A stretch of DNA of 11,251 bases from a virus. Its lineage: Duplodnaviria > Heunggongvirae > Uroviricota > Caudoviricetes. The notes under the pieces were generated by a model that worked only from the letters and a program-made list of their open reading frames with translations, was not told where the DNA came from and ran no database searches. The stretch is taken from the IMG/VR virus record IMGVR_UViG_2713896736_000010; one strand, written 5' to 3'. A program made the translations under genes and the position numbers. Position 1 is the first letter of the stretch, and every line of letters begins with the position of its first letter. Shown piece by piece: positions 10,617-11,251 of this stretch.

Positions 10617-11124
10617 TCACAGTCTCCAGTTCTGAGCCTGATACTGAATGGCATTAGCGCCGGTGCCAGGTGTTTTAGCACCGCCACTTCCTCCGCTACC
10701 ACCAGCCTTATGCATCGCATATGCACCTACCGCACCCAAACCAGCGCCAACAAGAGAGGCTCGCCCCTGCTGTTTCGTAAACGCAGCCTGTGCGTCCGAT
10801 TTAGCTTTTGCCAGACTGCTGTCTGCCAGCGAGTTAAAACTCTGTAACGCATCCGCCTTCTGACCTGAACCGAGAGCTGCAACATCCTGTAGCCCGGCAA
10901 CATACTTATCTGCCTGCGATACCTGCCCCCGTGTGGTTGTGTCAATCTGCCCGGTTACCTGATCACTCTGGTTCGCATTCATTACCGCGTTAAAGCGACC
11001 ACTGGACGGGTCAACACCGGACTGAGCAAGATTACCCGCCAGCTCCTTCCGTGCTTCGCCAAACTGTTTCTGATACCCCAGATTTGTGGTGCCAGCAATA
11101 TTGTCGTACTGCTGCTCACTGTTC
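10617..11124 (-). pseudogene. Gly/Ala/Ser-rich protein gene whose 5' end appears truncated by the IS insertion (the intact remnant could also be expressed from the internal ATG at 10982 as a 121-aa protein)
   Basis: The minus-strand frame of the 10617..10982 ORF stays open with no stop codon upstream through 11124 and into the IS end, with no further start codon. This suggests the original N-terminus lay where the IS now sits. TGA stop at 10617-10619. Confidence 0.45.
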
Positions 11125-11251
11125 TGAACCGCCCCGGAAATCCTGGAGACTAAACTCCCTGAGAAAGAGGTAAACAGGATGACTAAAAATACTCGTTTTT
11201 CCCCCGAAGTCCGTCAGCGGGCGATTCGTATGGTTCTGGAAAGTCAGGATG
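11125..11251 (+). mobile_element. Left end of an IS3-family insertion sequence (IS629/IS1203-like), extending beyond the window
   Basis: The terminal sequence TGAACCGCCCCGG...CCTGGAGACTAAAC...GAGAAAGAGGTAAACAGG-ATG matches, from memory, the left inverted repeat and leader of IS629-type elements. It starts with the TG typical of IS3-family ends. Confidence 0.8.
11179..11251 (+). CDS. IS3-family transposase OrfA, N-terminal fragment (continues beyond window)
   Basis: Translation MTKNTRFSPEVRQRAIRMVLESQD is the characteristic N-terminus of the IS629/IS1203-group OrfA helix-turn-helix protein. AGAGG lies upstream of the ATG. Confidence 0.85.
   Translation, partial: MTKNTRFSPEVRQRAIRMVLESQD

Follow-up and report, generated by a model that had tools for sequence, protein, structure and literature searches.

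IS1203 is the O157:H7 form of IS629, a member of the IS3 family, and IS629/IS1203 is the most abundant insertion sequence (IS) of E. coli O157:H7. In lambdoid phages, the late genes are read from pR' by a Q-modified polymerase that is resistant to terminators. Most IS629 copies in O157:H7 (62%) sit in prophages (PMC3271280), and IS629 is the main driver of the diversity of Stx2a phages within types, those integrated at argW included (PMC4587872). The positions of IS629 in Stx2a prophages are polymorphic, which has already been used for the subtyping of O157:H7, and they are known to shape the integrity of the phage. IS629 inside the stx2 gene of an O157 Stx2 prophage (FRIK1275) abolished neither the downstream late transcripts nor plaque formation (PMC7430833). 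As for the late genes, a close described system is Sp5, in which ORF79 (421 aa) and ORF80 (2793 aa) are both needed for tail assembly (Mondal et al. 2016, PMC5155283). The deletion mutant of Sp5 ORF76 is still infectious and lysogenises very poorly (PMC5155283).

The window, i.e. the whole stretch of viral DNA that was analysed (11,251 nt), contains a locus of this kind. In it, the left end of an IS1203/IS629 element abuts codon 50 of a 218-aa late gene, which belongs to a Stx2a-type prophage at argW in a genome of the O157:H7 lineage. The features are as follows.

1..22, plus strand: attachment-site core, a copy of nt 3-24 of argW (comparison with argW)
145..8520, minus strand: intact gene for a large polyvalent protein of 2791 aa, homologue of Sp5 ORF80 (LPD38, LPD5, LPD1 and MuF_C domains)
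8589..9854, minus strand: intact 421-aa gene, homologue of Sp5 ORF79 (PHROG match; PMC5155283)
9865..10158, minus strand: intact 97-aa gene, homologue of ORF78 / orf69 (phrog_594)
10168..10614, minus strand: intact 148-aa gene, homologue of Sp5 ORF77 / VT2-Sakai orf68 (phrog_596)
10617..11124, minus strand: 5'-truncated homologue of Sp5 ORF76 / VT2-Sakai orf67 (alignment to intact alleles; phrog_611; 99.1% aa identity to orf67)
10983..11124, minus strand: stretch of the truncated gene without an in-frame ATG, GTG or TTG (frame scan)
11125..11251, plus strand: left end of IS1203/IS629, IS3 family (127 nt, 100% identical to annotated IS1203; divergence of the flanks in four copies)

Positions 1-11124 align gap-free and at 100.0% identity with several chromosomes of E. 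coli O157:H7, and with one mismatch against TW14359 and EC4115. Judged by this match, the stretch is the distal part of the late region in the Stx2a prophage at argW of E. coli O157:H7. In TW14359 the same stretch forms the end of a 62-kb prophage between yfdC and tRNA-Arg (argW), which carries an integrase, cI/cro-type regulators, Q, stx2A/stx2B, lysis genes, terminase, portal and an N4-gp56-type capsid gene, with stx2AB located about 26 kb beyond the stretch equivalent to the window. Since the window begins within a copy of the initial 24 nt of argW, its left edge is essentially the boundary of the prophage. This agrees with the initial annotation, which had called the region accessory and mobile.

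The genes of the window are homologous to and syntenic with orf67-71 of VT2-Sakai (Traversvirus), which are ORF76-80 of Sp5. Synteny was also seen with orf66-71 of VT2-Sakai, and the succession of protein lengths in VT2-Sakai is alike (218, 148, about 90, 421 and about 2800 aa). From this gene order we infer that the 218-aa gene is Sp5 ORF76. Four small proteins (218, 148, 97 and 421 aa) each match one PHROG family of unknown function from end to end, and the Pfam search gave no significant family for any of the four. The 97-aa gene shows a length polymorphism, with 294 nt here versus 252 nt and the annotation “bacteriocin” in VT2-Sakai and F765. The 148-aa gene has its ATG 2 nt past the stop of the truncated gene and is preceded by GGAG.

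To the right of the phage genes, all of the 127 nt at 11125-11251 are the same as in annotated IS1203 (IS3-like) copies (127/127, E = 3e-59; thousands of E. coli records), and this match is present in 3611 of the 5426 complete E. coli genomes. When the window and three other IS1203 copies were aligned together with their flanks, TGAACCGCCCCGGAAATCC... was common to all of them and the flanks parted just before the T at 11125. From this position the window reads TGAACCGCCCCGGAAATCCTGGAGAC, which is identical across the four copies, with unrelated flanking sequence to the left of the same base. Because the flanks diverge at 11125, the element begins exactly there. The terminal inverted repeat, which starts with 5'-TG and matches the left end of IS1203, opens with TGAACCGCCCCGG at this base. 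The allele without the IS reads ...CACTGTTC up to the junction and AGGTCATCG beyond it, and the last base which it has in common with the window is 11124.

The start codon of orfA is the ATG at 11179, 54 nt from the end of the IS; the gene reads MTKNTRFSPEVRQRAIRMVLESQD, and its first 24 codons lie within the window. The same offset is found in annotated IS1203 copies (about 55 nt expected), where orfA encodes the DNA-binding N-terminal protein. In total, the window holds the first 127 nt of the 1310-bp element, and the transposase gene is directed away from the phage genes. The full copy in F765 has 1310 bp, its terminal repeats are imperfect and it is accompanied by a 3-bp duplication (CAG), and full copies with an identical left end are annotated with a programmed-frameshift transposase (-1, orfA-orfB fusion) and a pseudoknot.

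On the phage side, the minus-strand frame is open from the stop codon at 10617-10619 to 11213, i.e. 89 nt into the IS, where an in-frame stop follows at 11216-11214. The first ATG, GTG or TTG in this frame is the ATG at 10982, which corresponds to Met98 of the intact protein, and no obvious Shine-Dalgarno sequence was seen for it. The intact allele of TW14359 (WP_000509483.1; L001 14018-14674) encodes 218 aa, and the length is 218 aa in every IS-free allele. The intact protein matches phrog_611 over its full length (1-218 of 218) and is 99.1% identical to orf67 of VT2-Sakai. The start codon of the IS-free alleles lies 149 nt past the junction. The junction splits codon 50. Residues 1-49 are missing altogether, and the gene keeps one base of codon 50, codons 51-218 and the stop. 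The gene is thus inactivated, having lost residues 1-50 together with its ribosome-binding site and start codon, and the IS supplies no hybrid start. Among the late genes of the Stx2a prophage at argW, it is a non-essential one.

These results bear out the structural part of the initial annotation in every detail that could be checked. It had placed the left end of an IS3-family, IS629-like element at about 11125, and the element is IS1203/IS629 with 100% identity, starting at 11125 itself. It had also noticed a minus-strand frame running into the IS without a start codon, as is found here up to 11213 with the first start at 10982. Besides, it had proposed a lost N-terminus, and the IS-free alleles do begin 149 nt past the junction and not at the ATG at 10982, so that the condition it had named for its own refutation does not hold. 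It further described an IS insertion at the 5' boundary which probably truncates the gene. The truncation holds, while the insertion itself is unproven, as the right end of the IS lies beyond the window. The window stops 127 nt into the IS, and its sequence is compatible both with a simple insertion and with a deletion bounded by the IS.

We then looked at the occurrence of the junction. A 500-bp probe centred on the site was uninterrupted in all complete E. coli genomes that have the site (419 of 419), and the site was also uninterrupted in 186 phage records. The megablast searches with the junction and with the whole window gave only IS-free alleles at the site among the 5426 complete E. coli genomes and the phage collection, and the exact junction was not found in species-representative genomes, IMG/VR viral contigs or JGI metagenome contigs. 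Phage PA28 (argW-integrated type) is 100% identical over the flank. H43 was considered as a full-length match and rejected, as its IS lies 3.57 kb further upstream. The uninterrupted site in 419 of 419 genomes indicates that the event is strain-specific and recent, and zero substitutions in the adjacent 11.1 kb compared with IS-free strains indicate that it is very recent.

One contig from Logan (SRR19237603; L004 6183-6840) carries the 218-aa gene with an additional C (+1), which breaks it into ORFs of 87 aa and 121 aa. Either a sequencing error or a separate inactivating event accounts for this C. The contig gave the sole exact match of the 121-aa residual ORF and was rejected as a carrier of the IS allele, for it has the +1 C frameshift instead of the IS.

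For the origin of the junction, we lean towards a simple insertion of the IS. In such a case, ordinary transposition of an IS3-family element into the site would have produced a target duplication of 3-4 bp (predicted TTC or GTTC), and beyond the 1310-bp element one would find the rest of the gene and of the prophage. The predicted right junction would read ...GGGGCGGTTCA, then TTC (or GTTC), then AGGTCATCGACC, i.e. the missing 149 nt of the gene. The right flank may also be expressed as TTC/GTTC followed by AGGTCATCGACCTTTTCCATG, and with a 3-4 bp duplication the right end of the IS (...CCAGGAAACCCGGGGCGGTTCA) would be followed by TTCAGGTCATCGACCTTTTCCATGAAG (or GTTCAGG...). Simple IS1203 insertions with a 3-bp duplication are found in the same prophage of TW14359 (TGG) and F765 (CAG).

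Under a simple insertion, the Q-antiterminated late transcript from pR', about 30 kb upstream, would still reach the four intact genes on induction. The expected phenotype would resemble that of the Sp5 ORF76 deletion, in which phage is made that infects and lysogenises poorly and the expression of Shiga toxin is unaffected. Both the read-through of the IS and the phenotype are inferences from other strains.

A deletion or rearrangement bounded by the IS is a serious alternative, to which we give somewhat less than an even chance. Here, an IS629 resident upstream or elsewhere would have lost the adjoining DNA or recombined with another copy, and 11124/11125 would be the endpoint of a deletion. 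The N-terminus of the gene and the upstream late genes (possibly as far as the capsid, lysis or stx2 genes) would be absent, which would separate what is left of the module from pR' and make it a transcriptional orphan. There are suitable elements for such an event, as a resident IS1203 has its left end facing the module in TW14359 (L001 26940) and in 57_142493 (L002 17694), and in the same late region 57_142493 and Vac_07.1 carry an IS1203 flanked by a loss of about 5.2 kb with no target duplication. [quoted passage not shown] However, the window offers no direct evidence of a deletion, in this prophage simple insertions are no rarer than deletions (TW14359, F765), and the endpoint is seen in no sequenced genome that was searched.

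In the more extensive form of such an event, a large IS629-mediated deletion would have taken most of the Stx2a prophage, possibly with stx2, and left the intact four-gene module for tail assembly and the polyvalent protein orphaned beside argW. We regard this outcome as unlikely. If true, it would represent a route for O157:H7 to lose toxin genes or to lock in the prophage while the distal genes are kept.

Less probable still is an autonomous operon of five genes, with its own promoter just upstream of the truncated gene, which the IS would have removed so that the module is silenced. What speaks for it is the tight packing of the cluster, together with a gap of 94 bp and a terminator-like hairpin before the intact gene, like the boundary of a transcription unit. 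In the IS-free allele this hairpin (L001 14717-14698, minus strand) is followed by a T-run and ends about 16 nt before the ATG, and these roughly 16 nt are all that lies between the T-run and the start, which argues against this reading. The consensus promoter scan of the IS-free allele gave no sigma-70-like site in 1.8 kb around the intact start, nor was a sigma-70-like promoter found near the junction within 8400-11251, including the retained part of the gene and the IS stub. With no promoter-like site found, nothing points to a dedicated promoter which the IS could have removed.

The hairpin upstream of the 218-aa gene fits Q-antitermination and is no sign of a separate promoter. Another terminator-like hairpin with a T-run is found at 8539-8554 (minus strand), directly upstream of the 2791-aa gene, and the two hairpins together fit a late region that depends on antitermination. 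Besides, the genes serve late morphogenesis in a Q-antiterminated phage, and in IS-free prophages a 133-aa gene, hok, lom, the tail-tip/tail-fibre genes and the head/capsid genes all lie ahead of the 218-aa gene on its own strand. The gene is therefore located deep in the late region, not at the head of an operon as the initial annotation had it, and the loss of a promoter which was proposed there finds no candidate promoter. Nor does a simple insertion entail the suggested silencing. In FRIK1275, IS629 in this transcript had no polar effect, and the downstream late transcripts were still made with the element in stx2 (PMC7430833), so a simple insertion need not silence the four intact downstream genes.

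An assembly artefact, in which an IS stub was mis-joined to phage sequence at a repeat and the real genome has no IS there, is hardly credible. In its favour, the IS part has exactly 127 nt, the typical overlap of a de Bruijn graph (k=127) at a contig end, and none of the public sequences searched contains the junction. Against it, the break coincides with the base at which the IS inverted repeat opens, which is expected of a real IS junction and not of a random chimera, and true unique-to-repeat junctions normally show up as a contig that runs k bases into the repeat. The window may end at a break of a short-read contig in a repeat. A repeat at its left end as well, which would have fitted an origin of the window as a whole contig, was ruled out, as that end is single-copy in O157 genomes.

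We also summarized other damage in this prophage, whose late region is damaged in differing ways in most of the strains examined. In 57_142493 (L002 17694-19003) and Vac_07.1 (L010 12733-14042), two unrelated strains from Japan and Argentina, about 5.2 kb of tail-fibre sequence, the same segment in each, is replaced by IS1203. The two strains share their right breakpoint (L001 23270), and their left breakpoints are 2 nt apart; the IS1203 orientations are opposite, and there is no target duplication. In 08-3914 (L007), CEC13004 (L008) and 93_161312 (L009), the module is 100% identical to that of the window, and in the prophage the small tail-fibre C-terminal gene contains a variant IS3-family element and the tail-tip gene is truncated.

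An IS cutting this gene is ordinary, well-documented and strain-specific prophage damage. The allele would add one more marker for the typing of strains and matters little beyond typing. After a simple insertion, the prophage is predicted to express toxin on induction but to spread poorly. If the junction is the endpoint of a deletion, it would be another IS-driven step in the decay of the argW Stx2a prophage.

Compared with the known systems, the prophage resembles the 933W/Sp5 type (Traversvirus) in its synteny and high identity with orf67-orf71 of VT2-Sakai and in its argW integration site, where the att core is duplicated. The inactivated gene is of the same family as in the Sp5 ORF76 mutant, and the homologues of ORF79 and ORF80 are intact here, but that mutant is an engineered clean deletion in a prophage at wrbA, whereas here an IS disrupts the gene and upstream DNA may have been lost as well. 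The element itself has the same terminal repeat as the full 1310-bp programmed-frameshift copies of IS629/IS1203 and is identical to them over 127 nt, although this copy is known from its first 127 nt alone. As in the deletions of 57_142493 and Vac_07.1, a late gene of this prophage is truncated directly at an IS1203 end; in those two strains, however, both flanks are visible and 5.2 kb are lost with no duplication, while one flank is visible here.

The closest parallels are the IS629 variants of Stx2a phages (PST1-PST3, Yin et al. 2015, PMC4587872; stx2::IS629 in FRIK1275, PMC7430833), with which the locus shares the element, the phage family, the interruption of a phage gene and the strain-specific variation. 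It differs from them in its position, as the codon-50 site in ORF76/orf67 is absent from the 419 complete genomes and the phage records searched. In conclusion, the codon-50 junction is a new, probable insertion allele of a thoroughly known phenomenon, and not a new element or mechanism.
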